From the IMG/VR virus record IMGVR_UViG_2606217105_000016, positions 1 through 12,601 of that record: 12,601 nucleotides of DNA; one strand, 5' to 3'. Shown one piece after another: positions 1 to 12,601 of the stretch. Both the position numbers and the translations under genes were made by a program. Below the pieces are notes generated by a model, which ran no database searches, had not been told where the DNA came from, and saw only the letters and a program-made list of their open reading frames with translations. The DNA is from a virus. Lineage: Duplodnaviria > Heunggongvirae > Uroviricota > Caudoviricetes. Position 1 is the stretch's first letter. The number at the start of each line of letters is the position of its first letter.

Positions 1-1119
1 TCAAATAACCAACTTAACCCATTCCTGACCTCGAGTATCGTTATAGCGATCGGTGGTTGCCTGGACTTTATGTCCTAGTAATGTTTTTGTATCGATACCC
101 TGTGCACGGTACAGCCGTTCTGATAGAGAGCGTTGTTCATGAAATGTTGGCGGAGTTTTTCCTGCTGGTGGAATTATCCCAGCCAGATCCCGTGCTTTGG
201 CAAAGTAGTCGCTCAGGTTGTCTTTACTCATCGGCTTCGGTTGTTTCTGGTGCCGACTATGGATTAGATATGGACTTAATATTCTGTCTCGGCACCCATC
301 AATAACTTCTTTTAACGTTATCCCAATGGCATCACAGCGTAGTGTAAGCGGTAACGCCAGACGCATTCCGGTTTTTCCCTGGGTGATATGCAAGTGTTCG
401 TTCCACACATCTGAAAAACGCATGTGGCAAATGTCATCACGGCGCTGACCAGTAACAATCGCAAGAAGCATTGCGTTACGGATAAAGTGTTTTTCAGGCG
501 TTGCATTGTAAATTTTTTGCCAGTCTTCCATGGTGAGCCTAGCTCTGGTTACTTTAGGGATCGGTTTACGGGTAGCCTCCGGAGGATTCCATCCAGGAGG
601 AACTTCCCCTGCATGCTGTGCTTCTTTATAAATATCAACCCATAATCCACGATTTACTCTCGCTGTGCTGACCATGTCTTTATCCAGCCACTCATCCAGT
701 ATTAATGCAAAGTCTCTTACTTCCAGTTCTTTCAATGGGTGGTTTCCCAGACGGGAAACCAGGTATGCAGCCATTCGAGTTTTTTCTTTGTGAGTTGTAG
801 CTGCAATATCTCCATTTTTCAGTCGCGTGTCCTGTATTTTCAGATATCGATCAACCCATGCCTTTAATCTGATACCCCGACGTTTTGTTGCTGACGGACT
901 TTCATCAATTTTGCGCATGAAATATTCAGCTTCTGCTGCAGCTATTCGCTGATTGGCTGTGGAAGCGATTTTTTCTGCCTTACCTTTGTCTGTTCCGAGT
1001 CCGTGAAATTTTCCAGTCACAGGATTTTTATACTGGTAGTAAACTCTGCCAGTTCTGCGATCAAACTTTTCGTAAAGACCGGCTACGTCAGTGCTGTTTT
1101 TTCGTGGCCTCGGTGACAT
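1..1119 (-). CDS. int: Phage tyrosine integrase (lambda Int family)
   Basis: 372-aa ORF with ATG at 1119..1117 and stop at 3..1. The C-terminus (HEQRSLSERLY...LLGHK...TTDRYNDTRGQEWVKL) closely matches the lambda Int catalytic tail as recalled (HELRSLSARLY...LLGHK...YRDDRGREWDKI), including the His/Arg and Tyr nucleophile region. The start overlaps the upstream excisionase gene as in lambda int/xis. Confidence 0.93.
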   Translation of the reverse strand: MSPRPRKNSTDVAGLYEKFDRRTGRVYYQYKNPVTGKFHGLGTDKGKAEKIASTANQRIAAAEAEYFMRKIDESPSATKRRGIRLKAWVDRYLKIQDTRLKNGDIAATTHKEKTRMAAYLVSRLGNHPLKELEVRDFALILDEWLDKDMVSTARVNRGLWVDIYKEAQHAGEVPPGWNPPEATRKPIPKVTRARLTMEDWQKIYNATPEKHFIRNAMLLAIVTGQRRDDICHMRFSDVWNEHLHITQGKTGMRLALPLTLRCDAIGITLKEVIDGCRDRILSPYLIHSRHQKQPKPMSKDNLSDYFAKARDLAGIIPPAGKTPPTFHEQRSLSERLYRAQGIDTKTLLGHKVQATTDRYNDTRGQEWVKLVI

Positions 1120-1357
1120 GAGTTAAAATCTCCTTCAGTGCATCATCATCGCCAGTATGAATTTCCGGCGCAATTCCCGTTTCACCAGGCCCAACAAATA
1201 CTGCTCGGCGATCTATCAGCCAACGCCCACGAATTTTTTGTGGTCTTGGAACGATGTATCCTAGTTTTCCGTATTTCACCAGGGTAGTGTTTGTTATTGG
1301 GAGACTGAACCGTTTTGGTTTCCACTCGTCGAGCGTTATCAGGTACTGTTCGCTCAT
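1088..1357 (-). CDS. xis: Excisionase-like protein
   Basis: Small (~89 aa) basic ORF immediately upstream of int, overlapping it by 32 bp. ATG at 1357..1355 is preceded by GGAG about 8 nt upstream; the ORF track extends to a GTG at 1366. Position and size fit a lambdoid Xis; sequence identity was not verified. Confidence 0.65.
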   Translation of the reverse strand: MSEQYLITLDEWKPKRFSLPITNTTLVKYGKLGYIVPRPQKIRGRWLIDRRAVFVGPGETGIAPEIHTGDDDALKEILTHVTEATKKQH

Positions 1358-1418
1358 GGCTATCACTCCGGAACGCGCCAGTTGCAGAATATCAACGACA
1401 ACTGGCGACGGTTGAACA

Positions 1419-3890
1419 TTAAAAATCAGCCTGACTCGGGATCAGTTTTTGCCAGATAACTGAAACGTATTTTGCCTGGTAACGGGCGTCATCAAGTGCA
1501 TTATGGCGCTCACCTTCGAATGGAATAGCCGTTCTGGCATCGAAGTCTATGGCTTTCCCCAGCTCAACGATTGTGCGTACATCGCGATCGTTGTAGTAAC
1601 GCCACGGGCAGGGGATCCCCTGCCGTTCGTATGAACGGCGCAAAATCGTGTTGTCGAAGTTGGCTCCATTTCCCCAGACCTGAACAAAAAATTCACCGGA
1701 GTTTTCGTCGATAAATTCCCGCAATTGTAACAGTGCATCATCTAACGGGATTTCATCGGTCATAATGGCAGATTGCGCCTCGCGTGATTGCTTAAGCCAC
1801 CATTTAATGGTGTCACGATCAATGACTCCGCCAGCAGTTTCCAGATCGATAGTCTTACTAAATTCCGGTCCCATATCTCCGGTTTGCGGATCGAAAAATA
1901 TTGCACCTATTGAGATAATCGGGGCATCAGGATTTTTTCCCATGGTTTCAAGGTCGATCATTAGATGGTCACACGTCCTGCTGGTGGATGTGATAACGCG
2001 ATGACCGTTCACCGTAATTAAGGGATCTGCCGTCTCGCCAGTTTCACTATCGCTGGCGTGATCCTGAGCGCTGCCAGCATTCTCCTTGTGTGGGTGTTCA
2101 GCGCCTTCCATTTTCTCCGAATCGTCTTCCTGAACTTCAACCTGGTTCTTGTCATCGAATGTTTCCTGGTATGTTGCGTCGCCCATCACCGCACCACAAT
2201 CAGGGCAGTTGCCACCACCGCTCTGACCGCAGGCGGTGCAGATTTTTTCCGGTTCCTGTTGCACTACTGGTTCAGGTTGTTTCGTTTCTGGCTCGTTTTG
2301 TTGCGTATTTGGGCTGTTTTGTTCCGCTTTCTGGTCGTTCTGTTCCGTTTCTTGCTGGTTCTGGTTCACAGTATCGCGGGTCTGGATCCCCTTAACCCAT
2401 TTCGGATCATTCGGGTCGCTAATCCCTTCAATAAATTCACCACGTGATGCAGCAAGCAACTTATCGGCGTCAGGCTGGCTGATATTGGCTGCCTGCATAA
2501 TTTTGTTTACTTCGTCAGCGGTAACTTTTACCGGTTCTGGCTGTGCGGTCGTGTCAGATGCACCAGTATTTTGTTGTGAACCTGAGTATGTACTGTTTTT
2601 GCGGGCGAAATATTCTTCTTTCGTGATTTCAGTAGCCCCGGCAGCCAGCGCCTTATCCAGACCAGAAAGTTTGTTTGCGCGACCGTATTTTTCGCCATCC
2701 TTGTCGGTGAAGAGGAAGTAGAACGGCCCCTCACGCTCTACAGATGGTTCGACTTCCACTTTGCATTCGGTTTTTTCGTTGTCCGGAATTGCCGTTTCCA
2801 CTGCATCAGTTTCTGGTACTGGCGACGAGAGAGTATCAGTTGCGCTCTGATTTGTTCCTTCATCTTCAAACACGCCCTTTGTAGTCAGGTATTCAGTAAT
2901 GTATTTGTTCAGTGCCACAGGATCTTTGTGAATGTCGATCGGACGTCCACGGACAAGGCCAAAAATAGTCTGGCGGTCGTAGCGAAGGGCATCAGGCTGT
3001 TTGCGCATCGATGCCGAGATACGCTTCCAGTCTTCGCGGTCGTTGTCGATAACTTCATTTTTTGCCCAGCGATGGATGCTGCCGTCAATGTTTCCGGCAT
3101 CCACATCACCAGGCCAGAGAGCGTAGGCCAGTTCGTCATCCAGTGTTTTCCATGTCTGCTTGTATTCGCGACGAATGACTGCAGTGACAGGGGAGATATT
3201 TTCTGCTGAGTTTTCAGTGTGCTGTCGGTTGACTCTGGCGCGGGCGAGATCAACAGCAGACGTGTATTTTCCGGTTTCCTTGCGTTCACCTTCGCGACGT
3301 TTTTTCCAGATGCGCATCTCTGCCTGAATTTCGGGCCATTTAGCTCCAGGCTTACATTTATGCTTAACCCACCCGATGGCATGCAACTTAAGTTCTGGAT
3401 ACATGGCGTTAACTTCTGGCATTTTCATCAACGCTTCAACGATATGTCCGTCGAATGTTGCCATGTCTTCCTGCAACAATTCCTGCGCGCTAATCACCAT
3501 ATCAACGGTGATGTTTTCACATGTGTCGAACTTAACCATGACAGCGTTCTGTACTTCAGGGGCCAGCTTGTCAAAAGTGACGTTCATCGGATCTGATTCA
3601 GTCTCAACCGGGACAAAGGAAGCAGACTCCTCATCCCAGCGGTTTTCCTGCATATATTCAGCATCCCAGGAATCGAGGGCAGGGCGGGGTATACCGGGTT
3701 TATCCTCGCAAACAAGAAATTTATAAGCGCAGTCCTGAGCAGCCGGATAATGCTCCAGGAATTGCCAGTGAAATTTTGCGCGGGCGCGACGTTCATCACC
3801 GGCTTCAATGGCAGTGGCTACAGCGACTGCACCTTCTTCCTTTATTGCCTGTTCGTCCGGAATGGCGGCGCAAATAAAGACTTTACTCAT
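1419..3890 (-). CDS. Exodeoxyribonuclease VIII-like protein with C-terminal DnaQ-like DEDDh 3'-5' exonuclease domain, CxxC-x7-CxxC zinc ribbon and Q/E/N-rich linker
   Basis: 823-aa ORF, ATG at 3890..3888 with GAGG upstream. C-terminal roughly 190 aa carry the exonuclease motifs Exo I (MIDLETMG), Exo II ([13 protein letters not shown]) and Exo III ([10 protein letters not shown]). Zinc ribbon [15 protein letters not shown] is encoded near 2190..2237. A low-complexity Q/E/N/P linker is encoded near 2236..2400. Confidence 0.85.
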
Positions 3891-3982
3891 TTTGTTTTAC
3901 CTCATTACAGATTTAAGGGTGAACAAATCCCTGCCATTGCTGGCATATAAGAATGAAAGCGGATGTTTATTACGGAACTGTT

Positions 3983-4174
3983 TTAAAGACCTGCCGGGAT
4001 TTCGTTATTATCCTGGTGAATAACTTTATCGACCGGGTAACAGTTACCGGGAATTTTCTGTTCGGTTGCTGCAGTCATACATTCCTGCATTGTCCTGTGA
4101 ACACTGACTGCAATATCAACTGGCTCTCCGGAAACAAGATAAACTGTCAGAACAAGCGCAAATGCTGAATTCAT
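3983..4174 (-). CDS. Small hypothetical protein with N-terminal signal-peptide-like hydrophobic segment (~63 aa)
   Basis: ATG at 4174..4172 preceded by AAGGA 8 nt upstream. Begins MNSAFALVLTVYLVSGEPV, which looks like a signal peptide or membrane anchor. Its start overlaps the stop of the upstream ORF in an ATGA arrangement. The ORF track's longer 81-aa version starts further upstream at 4228. Confidence 0.5.
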   Translation of the reverse strand: MNSAFALVLTVYLVSGEPVDIAVSVHRTMQECMTAATEQKIPGNCYPVDKVIHQDNNEIPAGL

Positions 4175-4359
4175 TGTGCACATCCTTTTGGCATCAGACG
4201 TAAACGAGCCAGCATTGAAACAATGCATATTTTATTTAATAGCTCCCGTTCTTGTTTTCTCTTGTTAATGGCATCTTCAGTAAATACTGGGTTACTGATA
4301 GTGACACCAATTTCAAAACAACCTTCAGACGTATTAACGTTTGGTAATAACGTTTCCAT
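4171..4359 (-). CDS. Small hypothetical protein (~62 aa)
   Basis: ATG at 4359..4357 preceded by GAGGA 7 nt upstream. Its TGA stop (4173..4171) overlaps the ATG of the downstream gene, suggesting translational coupling. The ORF track's 97-aa version starts at a GTG at 4464, which is less convincing. Confidence 0.45.
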   Translation of the reverse strand: METLLPNVNTSEGCFEIGVTISNPVFTEDAINKRKQERELLNKICIVSMLARLRLMPKGCAQ

Positions 4360-4917
4360 TATCGCGTCCTCAACAATGAATTTTGTGATGCGGTGCCTGG
4401 TGCCTCCAGGTGACGTTAACCAGTTAACAATTAACGCCGGATACAGAGAACCCACCCATAACACTGTTTTTGGTTTTAACTGTTCCGCGTGCGCTTAGCC
4501 GCATTCACCGCATCACAAAATTCACTTTAAAAAGGGCGGCAGAGCAGTCACGGAGTAAAACTGATACCGCCAAACGCCACCAGAAAATTGATAACAGAGG
4601 GCGTTGCAGCGGGGTTGTCACTTAAGCGTATGGTCAACCTGACAACCCGGTGTCCTCAACGGGGAAGGAATAACCCCGCCATACTTACCGCCGCGCCATT
4701 TCGCGGATTGCCACAACCGGAAGCGCACGGTCGAATTAAATTTAACGACACCGTACAGACAGAATAACTTCGCCGTGCGCTTTCGCGTTATGTCCTGACT
4801 TTTCAGGGATATATCCTTCCAGTAAACTGCCAGTGCCGGATGCTCACCCGTGTCCGGCGCACGCACTCCACCTGACCCGTGGAGAACTCCTTAATTACCA
4901 ACCCTCAGGAGGGTGAA

Positions 4918-5139
4918 ATGACTAGTAAAAATGTAAATATCCAGTTTAACCACGATGTTTCTCCTGCTGGACTTGCGGATGAGCTCACTGCTATAAAAAC
5001 GGCAATTATGCTACTTGCTGCTAAGTTGCCTGCGTCATCAAAGCCAGCGGAAATTTGTGACTCATTGCGTAAGATGAATTCAACAAAATGCAATGAGATG
5101 GCATCACTTATTGAAAGTGCAATTGATTTTAATGATTAA
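4918..5139 (+). CDS. Hypothetical small protein (73 aa)
   Basis: ATG at 4918 preceded by a canonical AGGAGG (4907..4912) with 5-nt spacing. It is the only plus-strand gene in a block of minus-strand genes and overlaps the 3' end of the convergent gene 5129..5503 by 11 bp. Confidence 0.5.
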   Translation: MTSKNVNIQFNHDVSPAGLADELTAIKTAIMLLAAKLPASSKPAEICDSLRKMNSTKCNEMASLIESAIDFND

Positions 5140-5503
5140 TCGAAATTTCATGGCTAACTGTAACACTCCCATCTGTGGCGGGATGGTTTAAATCGCTGGG
5201 ATTAATGCCGCACTCAGTAAAATGGTTCTTAAGGGGTTCTATCCGAATCCCTTTCTTTTTCATTAACAAGCCAAACCCCTTATCAATGATATCCATTAAT
5301 TCCAGGAGGTATTTTTCATGTAAATCCTGGTTATCAGAGAGCTGCTTCTCTTCGTACAGACCGATAAAGGCACGACGCACGTTACCGGATATAGTATCGA
5401 TGGTTTCTTTTTCTACGGTACTCAGGTCAAGAGTCGCCAGTTGGGAACGAACTATATTCGCTGCCATTTCCTGGAATTGCATTGGTAAATCTTTAAATTC
5501 CAT
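5129..5503 (-). CDS. Hypothetical protein (124 aa)
   Basis: ATG at 5503..5501 with GAGG upstream. It is the second gene of the leftward operon downstream of the repressor-flanking operators. No recognisable motifs. Confidence 0.6.
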   Translation of the reverse strand: MEFKDLPMQFQEMAANIVRSQLATLDLSTVEKETIDTISGNVRRAFIGLYEEKQLSDNQDLHEKYLLELMDIIDKGFGLLMKKKGIRIEPLKNHFTECGINPSDLNHPATDGSVTVSHEISINH

Positions 5504-5525
5504 TATTAGCCTCGTTGGTTAGCTA

Positions 5526-5744
5526 TTAACGCGGGCATGTAATCATTCTGGCAATGCTTAATGCCGCTGCTTTTTCCAGCCTGGTGATATCCTGCTCCAG
5601 AGCGGACAGATTTTCAGCCTGCTTAGCCTTGGCTTCATTGGCCCATTTCAGATCCTGCGCTGCATTAATTTTCTGGCGCATCCACTCATAAAGTTCATCA
5701 TCGGTATAGTCTGGCGCGATGATGACGGGTTCTCGTTTCTGCAT
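5526..5744 (-). CDS. Hypothetical protein (72 aa), first gene of the leftward early operon
   Basis: ATG at 5744..5742 preceded by GAGGA 6 nt upstream. Acidic, predicted helical. It lacks an arginine-rich N-terminus, so it is not an obvious lambda N-type antiterminator. Confidence 0.6.
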   Translation of the reverse strand: MQKREPVIIAPDYTDDELYEWMRQKINAAQDLKWANEAKAKQAENLSALEQDITRLEKAAALSIARMITCPR

Positions 5745-5939
5745 ACTGATTCCTCGCGGTGCTGTTTCCCCTTAACGCCGGGGTAGCGGAACAAAAACCT
5801 GCTGCATAGTTATTAAAGTTGAACCCTGCCGTCATGTTCTTACGCCTCGGGCTGGCTACTTAACCCCTGACCACTGCCTGGTAACTCAAAGTATTGCCCT
5901 GCATTCTGTGGGGCGGGGTGGGTTGGTATGAAAAGAAGG

Positions 5940-5978
5940 ATACCCATAGGTATTTAAAAAGTAAATACCCATGGGTAA
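5940..5978. promoter_or_regulatory. OL-like operator pair with a leftward pL-like promoter
   Basis: Two 14-bp palindromic sites 25 bp apart: ATACCCATAGGTAT (5940..5953) and ATACCCATGGGTAA (5965..5978, containing the perfect 12-bp palindrome TACCCATGGGTA). On the minus strand these interleave with a -35-like TTTACT and a -10-like TATCCT, mirroring the OR/pR arrangement. Confidence 0.6.
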
Positions 5979-6019
5979 CCTTTTGCAGTGTCTTAACTGG
6001 TGACTAGTTGTTTGGTGAG

Positions 6020-6439
6020 CTATGATGCGTTTTGTGCTTTCTTTTTACGGATTTCTTCGTAGATCATATTGTAATACTGTTTTTTCTCTTCAAGAGTTTT
6101 TAATAATTTATCCGCTTCACTTTCTGGCAGTTCGTCTAAGAGATCTAAAAAAATACGTTGTCGTGGCGTTAGAACCCTTGTTTCATAACTGGAGGCTGTG
6201 TTCGTTGATGATGAAACGATACCATCCATCCATCCCCGGGGTAACCCAAAGGACTCTTCGATAATCTCCACCATATCATCAGCGATCCGTTTTTTTCCCT
6301 TTTTCCCCTCTGGGTACAACATTCTTGATACATAAGAAGGCTCGCGCCCGATCTTTCTGGCCACGTTAACCGCTTTACCATCGCATTTCTCATCACGAAT
6401 TTTGATGAGTTGCTGTCGTCTAAATTCATATTTGTCCAT
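6020..6439 (-). CDS. CI-like phage repressor (HTH DNA-binding protein)
   Basis: 139-aa ORF with an HTH-like segment (AVNVARKIGREPSYVSRMLYPEGKKGKKRI). It is divergently arranged with a Cro-like gene across an operator-bearing intergenic region. There is no Shine-Dalgarno before the ATG, which sits about 7 nt downstream of a TATTAT -10 on the minus strand, suggesting a leaderless mRNA as for lambda cI from pRM. The repressor is small, with no obvious S24 peptidase domain. Confidence 0.75.
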   Translation of the reverse strand: MDKYEFRRQQLIKIRDEKCDGKAVNVARKIGREPSYVSRMLYPEGKKGKKRIADDMVEIIEESFGLPRGWMDGIVSSSTNTASSYETRVLTPRQRIFLDLLDELPESEADKLLKTLEEKKQYYNMIYEEIRKKKAQNAS

Positions 6440-6445
6440 AGGTAA

Positions 6446-6514
6446 ATAATAGATGCGATTACTGCAAGGTAAACAACCTGTGGGTATTGACTTTTGTTTA
6501 CCTGTGGGTATTCT
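6446..6514. promoter_or_regulatory. OR-like operator pair with divergent pRM-like and pR-like promoters
   Basis: Two 14-bp sites 24 bp apart: CAACCTGTGGGTAT (6474..6487) and TTACCTGTGGGTAT (6498..6511), sharing the half-site GGTAT with the OL sites. pR-like -35 TTGACT (6487..6492) and -10 TATTCT (6509..6514) overlap the operators. pRM-like -10 (minus-strand TATTAT, plus coordinates 6446..6451) sits just upstream of the repressor ATG. Confidence 0.6.
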
Positions 6515-6539
6515 TTGCTGTGTTTACTAAGGAGTAGCT

Positions 6540-6821
6540 ATGGAAGAATTAAGAATATTTCTCAATTCTCTTTCGTCAGATGAACAGCGTATGTTTGCAT
6601 GCGAGTGTGGTACCAGCATCGGTTATCTAAGAAAGGCATTGAGTAAAGGTCAAGTGTTAGGGGCATCGTTATGTGTCCTTATTGAGCGAGCCAGTAATGG
6701 TGAAGTTACACGTCAGCAACTAAGGCCTTTGGATTGGATGAATATTTGGCCCGAGCTGGAAGATACCAAAACGTTAACACAACCACTTTCTAGGAGCTTG
6801 ATTCATGAAAATCAAGCATGA
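6540..6821 (+). CDS. Cro-like (YdaS-type) small HTH regulator
   Basis: 93-aa ORF, ATG at 6540 preceded by AAGGAG with 5-nt spacing. The segment CGTSIGYLRKALSKGQ resembles a Cro/YdaS-type HTH. Divergent from the repressor. Confidence 0.75.
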   Translation: MEELRIFLNSLSSDEQRMFACECGTSIGYLRKALSKGQVLGASLCVLIERASNGEVTRQQLRPLDWMNIWPELEDTKTLTQPLSRSLIHENQA

Positions 6822-7230
6822 ACACATCCGCATGGCGATGAATGCCTGGGCGCGTCCTGATGGCGAAAAAGTTCCAGCAGCTGGAATAACCCAGGCTTAT
6901 TTTGAGTTGGGTATGACGTTTCCTGAACTGTATGACGACAGCCATCCGGAAGCCTTGGCTCGCAATACCCAGAAAATTTTCCGCTGGGTAGAGAAAGACA
7001 CCCCTGATGCAGTTGAAAAAATTCAGGCGTTGTTACCAGCGATCGAAAAGGCAATGCCACCTTTGCTGGTGGCCAGAATGCGCAGCCACAGTTCAGCTTA
7101 TTTTCGGGAGCTGGTGGAGACGCGGGAGCGACTGGTGAGAGACGCTGATGATTTTGTCGCAGTGGCAATCGCCGGTTTCAATCAGATGAACCGTGGTGGC
7201 CCGGCAGGAAATGCTGTGGCAGTACATTGA
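6805..7230 (+). CDS. CII-like / YdaT-like prophage protein
   Basis: 141-aa ORF overlapping the Cro-like gene by 17 bp; ATG at 6805 with AGGAG upstream. Size, position immediately after the cro-like gene and the N-terminus MKIKHEHI match my recollection of Rac prophage YdaT. This is from memory, not verified. Confidence 0.65.
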   Translation: MKIKHEHIRMAMNAWARPDGEKVPAAGITQAYFELGMTFPELYDDSHPEALARNTQKIFRWVEKDTPDAVEKIQALLPAIEKAMPPLLVARMRSHSSAYFRELVETRERLVRDADDFVAVAIAGFNQMNRGGPAGNAVAVH

Positions 7231-7301
7231 CTGACAATAGCCATATCGAATCGCTTCCGGCAACTCGTGAGTAAAAAGATTCGGTATCAGAAGAGGTGAG
7301 T

Positions 7302-8372
7302 ATGGCTAACGCCTGGCTCAGATTATGGCATGACATGCCAAATGACCCTAAGTGGCGAACAATTGCCAGGGTGTCAGGGCAGTCAATTGCAACAGTGATG
7401 GCAGTGTATATCCACCTCCTGGTGAGCGCGTCACGAAATGTCACGCGAGGTCACATTGATGTCACGACAGAAGATTTGGCAAGTGCGCTCGACGTGACAG
7501 AAGAGGTAATTGATTCAATTTTGCAGACGATGCAGGGGCGGGTACTTGATGGTGATTTAATCACTGGATGGGAAAAACGCCAGGTGCTGAAAGAGGACAA
7601 CGGCAATATTTCGCAAACCGCAAAATCTCCGGCAGAGCGCAAGAGGGCGCAGCGAGAGAGGGAAAGAAAGCGGGAACAAAATGGAGATTGTCACGGCGCG
7701 TCACGAAATGTCACGCACATGTCACGACGAGTCACGACAGATAAAGATACAGATAAAGATACAGATCAAGAAGATCAAAACACTATGGTCCATGGCGTAA
7801 AAAACGCCACGAACCAGGCAGGGGATGTTCAGACCGTCAATCCTGGTCAGCCAGCAGGCACGACACCGGAAGCCGATTCAGCGTATGCGCTGAAAGCCGA
7901 TTCGGGCGCTGTGCAGCAGGTGATGACCGCAAGGCCGGAGCAATCACACCAACTGCAGCAGCCTGAAGCCGATTCCGCCATTCAGCGGGAAGCCGATCGG
8001 GTAGTCCCGGAAAACACCGGGCAGCCTGTGAGACGAGTGGATTATCCGGATGTGTTCGAACAGGTCTGGCGGGAATACCCGTTGCGTGCTGGGGCAAACC
8101 CGAAGAAATCCGCTTTCAGTGCCTGGAAGGCCAGATTACGCGAGGGGGTGCCACCAGAGGCCATGCTGGATGGCGTGAGGCGTTACGCAAGATACTTGGC
8201 GGCTACCGGGAAAACGGGAACGGAATTTGTTCAGCGAGCGACGACGTTTTTTGGACCGGACCGGAATTTTGAGAACCCCTGGTTGCTCCCGGTAAGCGGC
8301 ACGAACAACCAGCGTTGTGTGAATCATATTTCTGAACCGGATAACGAAATTCCGCCGGGCTTCAGGGGGTAA
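7302..8372 (+). CDS. Replication initiator-like protein (YdaU/DUF1376-like) with internal iterons
   Basis: Probable ATG at 7302 with AAGAGG 5 nt upstream; the ORF track begins at a GTG at 7296. It sits where lambdoid phages carry the O-type initiator, and contains two iteron clusters in-frame, analogous to ori-lambda inside gene O. It also contains a DKDTDKDTD tandem repeat. Confidence 0.7.
   Translation: MANAWLRLWHDMPNDPKWRTIARVSGQSIATVMAVYIHLLVSASRNVTRGHIDVTTEDLASALDVTEEVIDSILQTMQGRVLDGDLITGWEKRQVLKEDNGNISQTAKSPAERKRAQRERERKREQNGDCHGASRNVTHMSRRVTTDKDTDKDTDQEDQNTMVHGVKNATNQAGDVQTVNPGQPAGTTPEADSAYALKADSGAVQQVMTARPEQSHQLQQPEADSAIQREADRVVPENTGQPVRRVDYPDVFEQVWREYPLRAGANPKKSAFSAWKARLREGVPPEAMLDGVRRYARYLAATGKTGTEFVQRATTFFGPDRNFENPWLLPVSGTNNQRCVNHISEPDNEIPPGFRG
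7426..7470. repeat. Iteron cluster 1 (candidate replication origin element)
   Basis: 45-bp block gcgcgtcacgaaatgtcacgcgaggtcacattgatgtcacgacag with TCACG-type motifs at about 10-bp phasing (7431, 7441, 7451, 7462). Its first 21 bp are identical to the start of cluster 2. Confidence 0.65.
7696..7740. repeat. Iteron cluster 2 (candidate replication origin element)
   Basis: 45-bp block gcgcgtcacgaaatgtcacgcacatgtcacgacgagtcacgacag, exactly 270 bp downstream of cluster 1. TCACG motifs at 7691, 7701, 7711, 7722 and 7732 are phased at roughly one helical turn. Confidence 0.65.
7740..7775. repeat. Short tandem repeat (12-bp unit gataaagataca, two copies plus degenerate copies)
   Basis: gataaagataca at 7740..7751 and 7752..7763, followed by gatcaagaagat. 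Encodes DKDTDKDTDQED inside the replication gene. Confidence 0.7.
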
Positions 8373-8412
8373 GTGTTGATTTCTGGTCATGAGGTAATTT
8401 TCAGGAGGACTT

Positions 8413-8823
8413 GTGGCAAAAGTTTTTACACAAGAAGAGCGAGAAAAAATTAAAGGGCGGGTTGTTGAACTCGTACGCCAGAGTGGGCGTGAGACGTTAC
8501 GGCAACTGGAAGTCAAGACAGGTGCGACAAGATATCTGATGAGCGTTCTCGCAAGAGAGCTGGTTGCCAGCGGCGATGTATACAACTCTGGTTACGGGTT
8601 ATTCCCGTCTGAACAGGCGCGTAAGGACTGGCAAAATGCCCGTAAAAAGCTCTCAAGGGCAAAGCCGAAGAAACCATCTGCGGTTGATCCGGACCTTATC
8701 TGGTCATTACCTGACGGAGAAATACGTCGCTACGACAGGCGTCAGAACATAATCTGTCGCGAGTGCCGGAAGAGCGAAGTTATGCAGCGCGTGCTGGCGT
8801 TCTATCGGCGACGTTTTAGGTAG
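8413..8823 (+). CDS. Hypothetical basic protein (136 aa), possible winged-helix DNA-binding protein
   Basis: GTG start at 8413 preceded by AGGAGG (8403..8408) with 4-nt spacing. Arg/Lys-rich C-terminus with a CxxC-like RECRK segment. Function unknown. Confidence 0.55.
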   Translation: MAKVFTQEEREKIKGRVVELVRQSGRETLRQLEVKTGATRYLMSVLARELVASGDVYNSGYGLFPSEQARKDWQNARKKLSRAKPKKPSAVDPDLIWSLPDGEIRRYDRRQNIICRECRKSEVMQRVLAFYRRRFR

Positions 8824-9399
8824 CGTTACATTGAGCAAACGGTGCAGAATTGAAATAATAGCAATTCGGAAGTATGCCGCTACGATGATGGTTGAAAGCA
8901 TAGGTAAGTTGACTGGGAAGGTTGTTACTGCAGTGAGCTCAGTCCGTGTATATAACCCATCATTGCCTGAAGGTGAGCAACAATCAGGTGCAACCGAAGT
9001 TAACGGCAAGAAGCTATGGCTGATAATGGTTCTGCAAATGCCAAACCGTTAGTGATTTCCGGAGAAACAATGTGGAAGGATATGGCAAAGGTAAAAAGTG
9101 TCTGTGAAAGATGCAAAATATCTAAACCATACATACAACCTCCTATCATGTAATAGTGTCGATGCCATTTCAATACACGGTAGCTCAGGAGAGGGACGAA
9201 AACAGCGGATACCCATTTATCAGTACTGGTTTCTCAATCCTCAGGTTTACCCAAAACTCAACACTAATCCAGCTGGTTATGTGAACCAGGTAAATTCTTT
9301 TGGTGTGAACCTCTTGAAGATGAAAGTTTTTTTGCTATGTTAGTCAAACATAAACTTCCCCTTTTTGAGCAAAAAATACTCTTTTAGAAGGATATTTAA

Positions 9400-11511
9400 A
9401 TGGCGCGTCAATATGAAATGCAGATATCAAGGATGACAGTAGATAAATTAGGTGTGAAATTATATGACAGGGCTTATGCTGTTATAGCCGAATTAGTATC
9501 TAACAGTTACGATGCAGATGCGACTAATGTCACTATAAAAGCACCTATGGGCCAATACTTGGCTGTTAGACAGGATGGTGTTGTCAGGTCAAAAAATGTC
9601 ACAATAGAAGTAGAAGATAATGGCGTCGGAATGGCGCCTGATGAACTACAGAACTTTTATTTGGTTGTTGGCAAAGAAAGACGTAAGGATCCAAAAAGAG
9701 GTGAAACCTCGAAGGTGTTTCACCGCAAAGTCATGGGACGGAAAGGCGTTGGGAAATTAGCACCTTTTGGTGTTTGTAAAAGGGTCGAGATTATAAGTGC
9801 CGGTGGGGAAAAAATCAGTCGTGATGGAAAGGAAGGGTATGAGGTTGCTCATATTCAGCTAGATAAAGAAAAAATAATGGATGATACTGCAGTGTCTTAT
9901 AAACCGGAAACTGGGGATTTAGACGGCACACTAAGTGACAGGACCTATACTAAAATAATATTAAGTGATTTTGAATATAGAAAAATTAGCGAAATAAAAG
10001 ATTTATCTCGGCAGCTTTCACAACGTTTTGGAGTGAAGAGTAAAAACTGGAATATTAAACTGATTGATACTTCGAAAACAAAGTCTAATCCTGACTATGA
10101 AGTTGAGGTCGGAGAGTTTACTGTTCCTGTTATGCCTAACTCTAAAATTGAATTTCGTTCCATGAGTGGAAGTATTGCGACAGATTCTTGTACGGATTTA
10201 AGTGATTATACGGCTTTTAATCCTGACGGCACGCGTTCATCAATTGTTAAGGCCGGTTTTGAACATGAAGGGAAAGCTTACCCGATATTAGGTTGGATTG
10301 CATACGCGAAAGAGCCTTATAAGGACGAGTTAATGGCAGGTGTTAGAATTTATTGCCGAGGTAAGTTTGCTGCGCAAACAGCAGTTTTTAATAGAAAAGC
10401 TGGTTTTACTGGAGAGCACTCTATACGTTCATATTTGGTAGGTGAGTTGCATGCTGACTGGTTAGACGAAAAAGAAGATCTTATCCAAACTGATAGAAGG
10501 GATATTCTATGGTCTGATGATTTAGGAACGCAATTTCAGAATTGGGGGCAAGAAGTTATTTTACTTGTGGGTAAAATAACTCGCGACCCCCTTAGAAATA
10601 ATATGATGAATCAATTCTTCGAATTAGCGCAAGTGGAGGATAAGGTCGAGCAAGCATACCCTGGAGCCGGTCAAAAGGATATGCGAGCACAGGCTAAAAA
10701 AATAGCCAAGTTGTTGGGTAAATCTTTACGAGGTGATGAATTACATGATCCTGATGCACTCGAGAATTTAGTGCAGTTAAGTATTATGTTAGCACCATTA
10801 CAATCCTTAGATGAGAAGTTAATAGAAGCTTCCAGTAAAGCGGATACACCGCTCAATGTTCTCAACGATATTTTAGCAACGGCTCAACTAGCTGAAACCG
10901 TTAGTTTTGGTCAAAAGGTCAAAAAGCGTCTTCAGATTATTGAGCGTCTCGAGTCTTTAAAAGACGCAAAGGATACAGCAGAAGATGAGTTACAAGATCT
11001 AATTGCATCCGCTCCGTGGCTAGTTAACCCTCAATGGGTCCCAGTTACAGCAAATAAAACGTTGTCCACGCTTAAAAGGGAATTTCAAAAATTTTATAAA
11101 AAGAAAACTGGTGAGGAGATATTTCTTATAGATTTTGATAAAAAAAATAAAAGACCAGACTTTGTATTGTTTAGTCAGGATGGAAAATTACAAATAATTG
11201 AAATAAAAAAGCCACATCATTATATTTCCAATGATGAAATGGATCGTATTATTAATTACTTCGAAACATTCGAGGAGTTTTTGAACGATGAGAGACATAA
11301 TGATTTTAAATCAATAGCATCTGATTTTCACGTTACGCTGGTAAGTGATGGGGAGCGCTTGAGTGGGGCACGTCGTAAAGCTTATACTGCATACATCGAA
11401 GAAAAACGCCTAACACCCGTTGATTGGGCAGGGTTCTTGCTGAGGACAACTCAAACTCACCAAGAATTCTTGGATGAGGCAGAACAGTTGAAGTTGGGAA
11501 ATAATGAGTGA
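9400..11511 (+). CDS. GHKL-family ATPase (MORC-like) fused to a C-terminal PD-(D/E)xK nuclease domain; predicted ATP-dependent restriction endonuclease
   Basis: 703-aa ORF, ATG at 9400 preceded by AAGGA. N-terminal Bergerat-fold motifs: ELVSNSYDADA (E-x3-N-x2-D-A), DNGVGM (DxGxG) and GRKGVGK. C-terminal nuclease motif RPDFVLFSQDGKLQIIEIKK (PD...EIK). The stop overlaps the start of the methyltransferase gene by 8 bp. Confidence 0.8.
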   Translation: MARQYEMQISRMTVDKLGVKLYDRAYAVIAELVSNSYDADATNVTIKAPMGQYLAVRQDGVVRSKNVTIEVEDNGVGMAPDELQNFYLVVGKERRKDPKRGETSKVFHRKVMGRKGVGKLAPFGVCKRVEIISAGGEKISRDGKEGYEVAHIQLDKEKIMDDTAVSYKPETGDLDGTLSDRTYTKIILSDFEYRKISEIKDLSRQLSQRFGVKSKNWNIKLIDTSKTKSNPDYEVEVGEFTVPVMPNSKIEFRSMSGSIATDSCTDLSDYTAFNPDGTRSSIVKAGFEHEGKAYPILGWIAYAKEPYKDELMAGVRIYCRGKFAAQTAVFNRKAGFTGEHSIRSYLVGELHADWLDEKEDLIQTDRRDILWSDDLGTQFQNWGQEVILLVGKITRDPLRNNMMNQFFELAQVEDKVEQAYPGAGQKDMRAQAKKIAKLLGKSLRGDELHDPDALENLVQLSIMLAPLQSLDEKLIEASSKADTPLNVLNDILATAQLAETVSFGQKVKKRLQIIERLESLKDAKDTAEDELQDLIASAPWLVNPQWVPVTANKTLSTLKREFQKFYKKKTGEEIFLIDFDKKNKRPDFVLFSQDGKLQIIEIKKPHHYISNDEMDRIINYFETFEEFLNDERHNDFKSIASDFHVTLVSDGERLSGARRKAYTAYIEEKRLTPVDWAGFLLRTTQTHQEFLDEAEQLKLGNNE

Positions 11512-12601
11512 GAAAACAGTGACCAGTTTGAATGCAGTTGACCTATTTAGCGGTGGTGGGGGACTAACCATGGGACTAAAAATGGCCGGGTTTGATGTCA
11601 AAGCTGCCGTTGAACTGGACGCACATGCCGCCGCTACTTTCCAAGCAAATCATCGTGAGACAAAACTCTTTGTTCAAGATATTCGGTTTGTAAAGGGGAG
11701 TGATATCCTAAATCTTATCCCTGAGCAACATTTAGATCTTTTATCTGCGTGCCCGCCATGTCAAGGATTTACTAGTCTCACTGCCAAGTATAAAAGGGAG
11801 GACCCTCGTAATTTATTGATTAACGAGATGTTACGGTTGGTTGAAGAAACCAATCCATCAGCAATCATGATGGAAAATGTTCCTGGATTAGCTTCCCGGG
11901 GAAATCATCTTCTTTCGCCAGTAATTGAGAGATTGAAAAAACTTGGTTACATAGTTAATTATGGAGTTTTGCAAGTAGCTGACTTTGGTGTACCACAGTT
12001 CAGAAAAAGGCTTGTTCTGTTGGCAGGAAAAGGATTTGCCATCCCATTGCCTGATGGATCACACTCTAAGGATGGAAGAGAGAAACCCAAATGGGTAACT
12101 GTTAAAGAAGCTATTGGAGATATGCCAAAACCCTTAACTCTTTCACAGGCTAAGAAGCAAGGGAAGTTTCCATTGTCGAGTTGGCATATTGTTAGGGATT
12201 TGTCTGAGATCAATATAAAGCGGTTACAAGCGGCTGTTCCAGGGATGTCTTGGGAGTGTATTCCCGAAGAACTCCGTCCAGATTGCCATAAAGGCGACTA
12301 TAAAGGATTTAGTAATGTTTATGGTCGTATGCTTTGGGATGACGTATCGCCTACGATTACAGGTGGGTGCACAACTTTAAGCCGTGGGCGATATGGACAT
12401 CCTGAGGATACGCGTACTATTTCTGTTCGAGAAGCTGCTAGACTACAGACTTTTCCTGATAACTATGTGTTTGATACAGCTTTGATGGATAAAGTATGCG
12501 TCATAATAGGAAATGCACTTCCATGCAAGTTTGCAGAGTATTTGGCTAACCACTGTAAAAATTATATTAATAAAGCAAGAACAGCTGGATTAATACCATA
12601 A
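11504..12601 (+). CDS. DNA (cytosine-5)-methyltransferase
   Basis: 365-aa ORF with the canonical m5C methyltransferase motifs: I (LFSGGGGLTMGL), IV (PPCQGFT, catalytic Cys), VI (ENVPGL), VIII (QFRKRLVLL), IX (REAARLQTFPDNYVF) and X (GNALPCKFAEYLANH). A variable target-recognition region lies between VIII and IX. ATG at 11504 overlaps the upstream gene. Confidence 0.93.
   Translation: MSEKTVTSLNAVDLFSGGGGLTMGLKMAGFDVKAAVELDAHAAATFQANHRETKLFVQDIRFVKGSDILNLIPEQHLDLLSACPPCQGFTSLTAKYKREDPRNLLINEMLRLVEETNPSAIMMENVPGLASRGNHLLSPVIERLKKLGYIVNYGVLQVADFGVPQFRKRLVLLAGKGFAIPLPDGSHSKDGREKPKWVTVKEAIGDMPKPLTLSQAKKQGKFPLSSWHIVRDLSEINIKRLQAAVPGMSWECIPEELRPDCHKGDYKGFSNVYGRMLWDDVSPTITGGCTTLSRGRYGHPEDTRTISVREAARLQTFPDNYVFDTALMDKVCVIIGNALPCKFAEYLANHCKNYINKARTAGLIP

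Follow-up and report, generated by a model that had tools for sequence, protein, structure and literature searches.

A backward-oriented accessory gene with a structured leader overlaps the end of an operon gene upstream of DicF in a Qin-type prophage of Escherichia coli

The p73/p124 gene pair and the p73 family

The window considered here, a stretch of 12,601 nt of DNA from a virus of the Caudoviricetes (IMG/VR virus record IMGVR_UViG_2606217105_000016, positions 1 to 12,601), contains two small genes of opposite orientation that run into each other at their 3′ ends, and the question raised by this locus is whether such an arrangement couples the two genes, for instance through antisense control or as a toxin-antitoxin (TA)-like unit, or whether it has another origin. 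The plus-strand gene, p73 (4918..5139, ATG at 4918-4920, stop codon TAA at 5137-5139), encodes a protein of 73 amino acids (aa), and the minus-strand gene, p124 (5129..5503, start at 5503, stop codon as the reverse complement of 5129-5131), a protein of 124 aa. As the first-pass annotation of this DNA had stated, the two genes converge with overlapping 3′ ends (shared stretch 5129..5139, i.e. 11 bp, read directly from the sequence), and p73 is preceded by a strong Shine-Dalgarno sequence (SD; AGGAGG at 4907-4912, 5 nt 5′ of the ATG). The best-supported reading of this pair is that p73 is a reverse-oriented accessory (moron-type) gene in a polymorphic cargo slot.

Both p73 and p124 are real genes. 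The same two coding sequences (CDS) are annotated in RefSeq on a 100% identical E. coli chromosome, as WP_000202162.1 (p73) and WP_000394538.1 (p124), each under the name “hypothetical protein”, and both proteins match PHROG families of unknown function from end to end (phrog_7249 for p73, 5.8e-46; phrog_6937 for p124, 1.3e-81). A literature search by protein accession yielded no mention of WP_000202162.1 or WP_000394538.1. The pattern of substitutions indicates that p73 is a coding gene under purifying selection and not a chance open reading frame (ORF). Among 6 alleles, 16 of the 21 variable sites are found at codon position 3. The ratio of nonsynonymous to synonymous divergence (dN/dS) is 0.15 relative to a Salmonella copy (dS 1.08) and 0.10-0.31 in other pairs, with dS values among p73 pairs of up to 1.8. 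Exhaustive and word-based searches define a family of proteins of 71-88 aa in Escherichia, Salmonella and Yersinia, in which residues A25, L32, P38, P43 and L50 are invariant among relatives at about 30-40% identity. Conservation of the plus-strand frame in related prophages, on which the first-pass annotation had made its proposal depend, is thus borne out by purifying selection and by the spread of the family across three genera.

The p73 protein is acidic and soluble (isoelectric point (pI) 5.2, grand average of hydropathy (GRAVY) -0.05), and its AlphaFold model consists of three helices (predicted local distance difference test score (pLDDT) 80). Searches of Pfam, NCBIfam, PADLOC and PDB sequence profiles gave no match for either p73 or p124, and p73 had no specific match in family, structure or defence-system libraries. 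Of 5426 complete E. coli genomes, 88 carry the gene; IrN, ETEC B2C and TW10598 are examples of carrier strains. On the strand opposite p73, a 62-aa ORF with a TTG start codon (4905-5093, minus strand) is open in the E. coli alleles because it has its wobble phase in common with p73; the antisense frame sharing this phase is open over 72 codons in these alleles. Since relatives carry stop codons in this frame, the 62-aa ORF is a shadow ORF.

The partner gene p124 consists of a conserved N-terminal domain (N-domain; residues 1-53, MEFKDLP...GLYEEK, window 5345-5503) and an allele-specific C-terminal part, of which residues 91-124 are predicted to be disordered. The p124 model, with a pLDDT of 61, was too poor for a structure search. 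Across prophages, the 53-aa N-domain is joined to different C-terminal bodies (including P0103/P0108, 133 aa; alignment A5), and one of the bodies found on it corresponds to the N-terminal domain of small Salmonella partner genes (LKHIIALLLEDAKRLQQLEPNAGTEARI). Such joining of one N-domain to different C-terminal bodies is domain-level mosaicism in early-left genes.

In all places where a member of the p73 family could be read (n = 8, three genera), the small gene runs counter to the phage operon around it, and its 3′ end shares 11-83 bp with that of a convergent ORF. The overlap is of 11 bp in the window, 17 bp in Salmonella L121, 29 bp in Salmonella L118, 38 bp in phage 118970_sal3 (L113), 41 bp in L126, 47 bp in L122, 83 bp in Yersinia L116, and 17 bp in Yersinia L114, where the pair is located in the late operon between the Q antiterminator and the holin. 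The partners of p73-family genes, in contrast, do not form one family. A 74%-identical p73 in Salmonella has a different partner that lacks the p124 body, and other family members are found beside unrelated partners. No link between p124 and the Yersinia late-region partner was detected by BLASTP or hhalign, and for the L367 partner the link is weak (E = 8e-5, probability 61%). Since orientation and overlap recur in all contexts while the partners differ, they travel with the small gene: backward orientation and tail overlap are inherited properties of a cassette family, carried by the small gene, and no accident of one prophage.

Two further observations were made on these family members. The Salmonella and Yersinia overlaps of 29-83 bp represent dual-coding DNA (L113 4167-4204, L118 5197-5225, L116 5185-5267, L126 3134-3174), and a partner C-terminal motif, (S/T)V(K/R)F(D/E)xAP(C/R)R, is conserved in the overlapped tails across the genera Salmonella and Yersinia. 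Also, the 138-aa CDS deposited for phage 118970_sal3 (AOP04187.1, L113 3788-4204) is probably too long at its start, as the family alignment and the leader described below place the start of the actual gene at an internal Met codon (3980), for a protein of 74 aa.

A cargo slot upstream of DicF and its structured leader

Comparison of 80 IMG/VR loci with a full-length p124 homologue showed a full-length p73 in 28, a fragment in 2 and no p73 in the remaining 50. The spacing between p124 and the gene for the small RNA (sRNA) DicF is 543-548 nt with full-length p73 (where DicF could be located) and 295-307 nt without it. Relatives devoid of p73 lack a segment of approx. 238-242 bp (window 4887-5128) made up of the p73 ORF and 28 nt of its leader, and they keep p124 and the DicF precursor, so that the clean loss of the segment leaves both undisturbed. 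Hence p73 is an extra gene within an operon that is missing from otherwise collinear relatives, as expected of a moron. Its base composition is also unlike that of the flanking phage genes: p73 has a GC content of 37.8% and the p124 C-terminal part one of 38.9%, compared to 48.9% in ydfC, 52.7% in the DicF precursor and 60.7% in the leader.

The SD of p73 (4907..4912, plus strand) is part of a 26-nt leader, CTCCTTAATTACCAACCCTCAGGAGG, which was found as an exact copy in at least 119 IMG/VR contigs, followed by one of four unrelated backward ORFs. Each of these ORFs comes with a C-terminal part of its own in the MEFKDLP N-domain gene, whose 3′ end it overlaps: an ORF of 77 aa with a partner of 135 aa (overlap of 23 bp), one of 92 aa with a partner of 133 aa (41 bp), p73 itself with its partner of 124 aa (11 bp), and one of 63 aa with a partner of 201 aa (23 bp). 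Between the 77-aa type and the window, homology stops exactly at the start codon of the backward ORF and picks up again inside the N-domain. Since one leader and SD precede four unrelated ORFs, each with its own partner C-terminal part, the interval between ydfC and the DicF precursor appears to be a polymorphic cargo slot of interchangeable genes. Within the 5426 complete E. coli genomes, the upstream leader region is present in 2228 and the 77-aa cargo, as carried by O157:H7, in 650. The ydfC-dicF spacer of the Qin prophage of strain K-12 (L125 3035-3450, compared with window 4520-5530) lacks p124 and p73, and retains both upstream hairpins as well as a truncated p73 leader (...GGAGAACTCCTTAATTACTAACCTT). 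Because these hairpins and the leader remnant remain, the arrangement in K-12 Qin looks as if it had arisen from the slot by deletion.

The complete leader of p73 (4835..4917, plus strand) is conserved and structured, with hairpins that show compensatory changes relative to the Salmonella and Yersinia copies. Hairpin H1 (GCCGGA/TCCGGC, 4835-4858, plus strand) changes in relatives from GCCGG/CCGGC to GCCTG/CAGGC, and hairpin H2′ (CTCCAC/GTGGAG, 4866-4884, plus strand) from CTCCAC/GTGGAG to CCCAAC/GTTGGG. A third element, the anti-SD sequence CTCCT (4887-4891, plus strand), is predicted to pair with the SD at 4907-4911, and the variants of this anti-SD:SD pairing comprise CUCCU/AGGAG, CUCCAU/AUGGAG, UCCUUC/GAAGGA, UCCUCU/AGAGGA, AUCCUC/GAGGAU and UCUUGG/CCAAGA. 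In the leader copies the ATG is always located 39-43 nt 3′ of the GTGG motif. In an alignment of 10 leader sequences (A6), 86.8% of cells are paired compared to 77.7% in shuffled alignments, with none of 500 shuffles reaching the observed value; the covariation score is 0.32 versus 0.16, and structures shifted by 1-3 columns are paired to 37-58%. With a sample of this size, these statistics are supportive and do not constitute proof. The variants of H1 give conflicting signals, by G-U versus A-C changes, on the strand on which this hairpin acts. The sequence GTGGTATCYT of the Salmonella and Yersinia copies was considered as an extended -10 promoter and rejected, because its hexamer can base-pair with the SD of each copy, differences on one side being compensated on the other, and thus represents the anti-SD.

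The leader is also found 5′ of other unrelated backward ORFs, i.e. two zinc-ribbon ORFs, one of 66 aa in E. coli and one of 63 aa in L367, the latter again with a tail overlap, and ORFs of 154/155 aa and of 77 aa in Yersinia. The shared SD-sequestering leader argues that the backward ORFs represent separate, translationally restrained units, and its conservation speaks for p73 being transcribed separately. Taken as an element in its own right, it is a portable leader of about 70-85 nt that precedes no fewer than eight mutually unrelated small backward ORFs in prophages of Escherichia, Salmonella and Yersinia and comprises a 5′ hairpin (GCCNG..CNGGC), a CCAC..GTGG element and the anti-SD:SD hairpin (copies at window 4835-4917, L057 2662-2745 on the minus strand, L117 4126-4206, L127 2112-2192, L129 2253-2330 and L367 about 726-795). 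No Rfam family corresponds to this leader, and a permissive-threshold Rfam scan gave DicF as the sole RNA family. A pattern scan of genome contigs for the leader proved too loose, with mostly chance matches, among which that in L367 was the sole real one. One of the leader copies touches on an existing annotation: the 118-aa “hypothetical protein” of PPompW-type phages (L057 2332-2688, plus strand; L002 4253-4609) contains in full, in L057, the 66-aa CxxC...CxxC zinc-ribbon ORF with the conserved leader on the opposite strand (2467-2673, minus strand); this backward ORF may be the real gene, and the annotated 118-aa frame its shadow.

Opposing transcription and competing explanations

Positions 4600-5800 of the window are 100% identical to several E. 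coli chromosomes, e.g. that of strain IrN, and the gene map used here is the RefSeq annotation of a 100% identical E. coli record transferred to window coordinates. On the basis of this map, of the Rfam match for DicF and of the Pfam DicB and YdfD families, the window belongs to an E. coli lambdoid prophage of the Qin/dicBF type. Its early-left operon runs leftward on the minus strand from the immunity region, in the order repressor, ydfC, p124, DicF, dicB, ydfD, exo, xis, int. The repressor-like gene lies at 6020..6439 and ydfC, the operon gene 5′ of p124 (RefSeq, PHROG search), at 5526..5744. The DicF sRNA at 4585..4534 is a full-length match to RF00039 (76.4 bits versus a gathering threshold of 48), complete with stem-loop and terminator. 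Further downstream on the same strand are dicB (4171..4359; Pfam DicB, 6.9e-40), ydfD (3983..4174; Pfam YdfD family), the exonuclease gene (1419..3890), the excisionase gene (1088..1366) and the integrase gene (1..1119), whereas cro-, YdaT- and replication-type genes are annotated on the plus strand. The suggestion that the plus-strand gene opposes the early-left operon therefore holds, as DicF, dicB, ydfD, exo, xis and int are all downstream of the pair on the minus strand. The Qin dicBF operon of K-12 has the composition ydfABC-dicF-dicB-ydfDE (PMC10448788); homologous ydfC, DicF precursor, DicF, dicB and ydfD occur there in the same order, with the promoter beside the repressor gene. In contrast to the window, both p124 and p73 are missing from its ydfC-dicF interval, and ydfA and ydfB are in turn absent from the window.

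What such an arrangement entails for transcription can be read to some extent from this map. In K-12, DicF is produced solely by processing of the polycistronic dicBp transcript, and no internal promoter was found (PMC10448788). No terminator-like site was detected on the operon strand between p124 and DicF in the window, and the first intrinsic terminator on the minus strand is that of DicF itself, at about 4534-4550. Since DicF is made only from the dicBp polycistron and there is no terminator before it, any operon transcript extending to DicF, or on to dicB, ydfD, exo, xis or int, is complementary to the p73 mRNA over its full length, and dicB and ydfD are reached by operon transcription only through anti-p73. 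Any p73 transcript, in turn, would be complementary to the 3′-terminal 11 nt of p124 at the least, and probably to some 100-125 nt. Transcription of each gene would accordingly run antisense into the other, as had been proposed. The claim that the pair leaves no room for terminators stands in part: there is no intergenic space at all, but a plus-strand terminator-like hairpin with a T-run (AAGGGGTTC-TATCC-GAATCCCTT, then TCTTTTTCAT; 5231..5263) is located inside the p124 CDS. This hairpin begins 92 nt past the p73 stop codon, and a p73 transcript would likely extend at least to it, as a candidate 3′ end. At the other end of p73, a candidate sigma-70 promoter (TTTTCA-17-TAAACT, 8/12 matches, 4800..4828, plus strand) has its predicted start near 4835, where H1 begins.

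Taken together, it is somewhat probable that p73 and p124 represent one of several alleles found at a polymorphic two-gene slot of the early-left (dicBp/pL-type) operon, with p73 as a moron-type accessory gene; coupling between cargo and operon is something we infer. The reverse orientation and 3′ overlap conserved in eight contexts from three genera fit the moron interpretation, with p73 as a lysogeny-type accessory gene. According to this interpretation, p124 would be an operon gene whose 53-aa N-domain is conserved and whose C-terminal part is exchangeable, and p73 a self-contained backward gene of low GC content with its own structured leader and a strong SD predicted to be sequestered, and its frame would run into the end of p124 because the cassette has no spacer at its 3′ end. 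In a lysogen, p73 would be expressed while the operon is repressed; firing of dicBp would then turn p73 off by convergent transcription and cleavage of the RNA duplex, and transcription of p73 would damp leaky read-through into the toxic DicF, DicB and YdfD genes. A precedent is the OOP RNA of phage lambda, a 77-nt non-coding transcript with defined promoter and terminator that is convergent and antisense to the 3′ end of cII mRNA and acts in an RNase III-dependent manner. Both cases feature convergent transcripts overlapping at their 3′ ends in a lambdoid early operon, with duplex cleavage expected to lower the operon message. The present locus differs in that the opposing transcript encodes a conserved protein and is fully covered by the operon transcript.

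Known morons provide the closest frame of reference, the bor gene of phage lambda being one prophage accessory locus of this kind. Location near the immunity region and antisense orientation relative to lytic genes are described hallmarks of morons (PMC7067206). Like moron loci such as STMMW_20121 of Salmonella prophage ST64B (PMC7067206), p73 is a small gene within a phage operon that is absent from close relatives, differs in base composition from its flanks, is oriented against the operon, and lies in a mosaic region beside the immunity region. It differs from them in having no 3′ spacer, always overlapping the convergent gene, in a promoter and terminator that are candidates only, and in an SD-sequestering leader common to unrelated cargo ORFs which alternate at one slot. 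Several points weigh against this interpretation. The mutual exclusion of cargo and operon and the damping of DicF and DicB are suggested by geometry, and the coupling is thus an inferred one. A scan for promoters with 9/12 matches upstream of p73 gave none, leaving the weak 8/12 candidate at 4800-4828; column conservation of this candidate is uninformative, as the upstream region is nearly identical among E. coli prophages and too recently shared among them for conservation to tell much. The hairpin at 5231-5263 is also kept in alleles devoid of p73, so that it is not diagnostic of p73, and may merely be constrained by p124 coding; the idea that it is specific to p73-bearing alleles was rejected for this reason.

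Alternatively, the overlap may be functionless, a by-product of mosaic recombination that brought a cassette devoid of a spacer right up to the end of the gene upstream, with expression of the two genes at different times or with a negligible antisense effect. The recombination junctions located exactly at conserved flanks, i.e. the cargo start codon and the partner N-domain, fit this possibility, as do the variable partner tails (overlaps of 11-83 bp), the predicted disorder of the p124 tail, and the clean loss of p73 that leaves p124 and DicF undisturbed. Yet the overlap recurs in 8/8 contexts of the p73 family, in all four E. coli cargo types and in L367, and the overlapped partner tails in Salmonella and Yersinia keep the (S/T)V(K/R)F(D/E)xAP motif. 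Recurrence in all contexts and the conserved motif make an incidental overlap less likely; furthermore, operon read-through across anti-p73 is obligatory for DicF and dicB. We therefore consider this explanation unlikely, although it deserves to be kept in mind.

A more elaborate proposal is that the slot and its Salmonella and Yersinia counterparts form a dedicated expression site for interchangeable lysogeny cargo with a portable, hitherto undescribed RNA leader, the overlap making cargo and operon mutually exclusive and acting as an antisense lock on DicF, DicB and YdfD. The leader, with its 5′ hairpin and its SD-sequestering hairpin, would then drive the cargo; firing of the operon, perhaps via duplex cleavage by RNase III, would switch the cargo off or re-program its translation, and some cargo/partner pairs might be true antidote/effector pairs. 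We regard this proposal as improbable in its full form.

Slightly more doubtful still is the idea of an effector/antidote pair, TA- or immunity-like as in pore-forming colicin operons, in which the C-terminal part of p124 would be toxic and the backward gene a constitutive antidote. In pore-forming colicin operons, immunity genes are found on the opposite strand (PMC4436062), and the layout is indeed alike, with an induced gene of conserved N-part and variable C-part, a convergent small gene and a lysis gene downstream. The order of effector, backward gene, DicF, dicB and the lysis protein gene ydfD mimics that of colicin operons, including the need for read-through across the backward gene to reach the downstream lysis and division-inhibitor genes, and the four backward ORFs pair one-to-one with distinct C-terminal parts of the MEFKDLP-domain gene. 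Such linkage would be expected anyway, however, if recombination were confined to conserved flanks. The similarity to colicin operons does not extend beyond layout: there is no homology, linkage of the pair is not obligate, no cytotoxic or immunity domain was detected in it, it is not known to be toxic, and p73 is soluble and acidic and not a membrane protein, unlike colicin immunity proteins. In 50 of the 80 IMG/VR loci, full-length p124 with the same C-terminal part lacks an accompanying p73, and p73 itself occurs without the p124 body, as in the 74%-identical Salmonella copy, or with other unrelated partners. Also, the p124 tail is predicted to be disordered.

The suggestion of a toxin-antitoxin-like arrangement, made in the first-pass annotation, was not supported either. 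Type I TA loci such as hok/sok and tisB/istR combine sense/antisense overlap and an SD-sequestering leader with a small hydrophobic membrane peptide. The p73 locus resembles them in its overlapping sense and antisense transcripts and in an SD-sequestering mRNA leader, which is reminiscent of tightly controlled toxin-system mRNAs and speaks for an effector/antidote pair. Nevertheless, p73 is not a small hydrophobic membrane toxin (GRAVY -0.05, pI 5.2, soluble three-helix model), and the RNA antisense to it is the long mRNA of an operon rather than a dedicated sRNA. As for type II systems, the genes are convergent and not co-directional, each is found without the other, and no homology of p73 or p124 to toxin, antitoxin, defence or immunity families was detected in Pfam, NCBIfam, PADLOC or PDB searches.

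Finally, that the plus-strand ORF is a non-functional shadow or decaying relic and that the minus strand alone matters is very improbable, since the rarity of p73 in complete E. coli genomes (88/5426), the failure to find a clear promoter upstream of it and an antisense frame open for 72 codons in E. coli alleles are set against dN/dS values of 0.10-0.31 with dS up to 1.8, antisense frames that are broken in relatives, a strong SD, and a family that keeps invariant residues at 30-40% identity in three genera.

Significance of the slot and other features of the prophage

Of the prophage products that reshape E. coli physiology, DicF and DicB are among the best studied. They act on cell division, metabolism and the function of phage receptors, and in enterohaemorrhagic E. 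coli (EHEC) the expression of virulence genes is promoted by DicF. Many dicBF-type prophages carry a variable backward small gene directly 5′ of the DicF precursor. Provided that the opposing transcript is made in lysogens, toxic prophage genes would come under a further level of control, which could also account for differences between strains in DicF output. If the regulatory readings fail, the pair is a well-documented moron with a tail overlap. As an uncharacterised backward moron, p73 belongs to a known kind of prophage feature; follow-up value may reside in the interchangeable cargo slot directly upstream of DicF and in the shared SD-sequestering leader, which offers a handle for finding further lysogeny cargo genes.

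A few features outside the slot were noted as well. In the immunity region, ydfA and ydfB are absent from the window (5745-6439), although close relatives have both. The 139-aa repressor-like protein has a weak match to DicA, limited to the C-terminal 50 residues (NCBIfam, 24.5 bits versus a cut-off of 101). Between its gene and ydfC, a near-perfect 37-nt palindrome followed by a T-run (TACCCATGGGTATTTA...TAAATACCTATGGGTA, window 5941-5977) could be the terminator of the repressor gene or an operator; this palindrome was also the source of spurious microRNA matches in Rfam. At the far end of the window, the prophage carries a restriction-modification cassette of two plus-strand genes that overlap by 8 bp (9400-11511, and 11504-12601, the latter continuing past the window end). 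The first encodes a 703-aa GHKL-ATPase-type restriction enzyme of the BbrUII/HgiDII family (NCBIfam, 237 bits, under the cut-off of 550; PADLOC REase_II, 6.7e-34) with a weakly SduA/DUF4263-like C-terminus, and the second a Dcm-type C5 methyltransferase (PADLOC, 8.9e-91).

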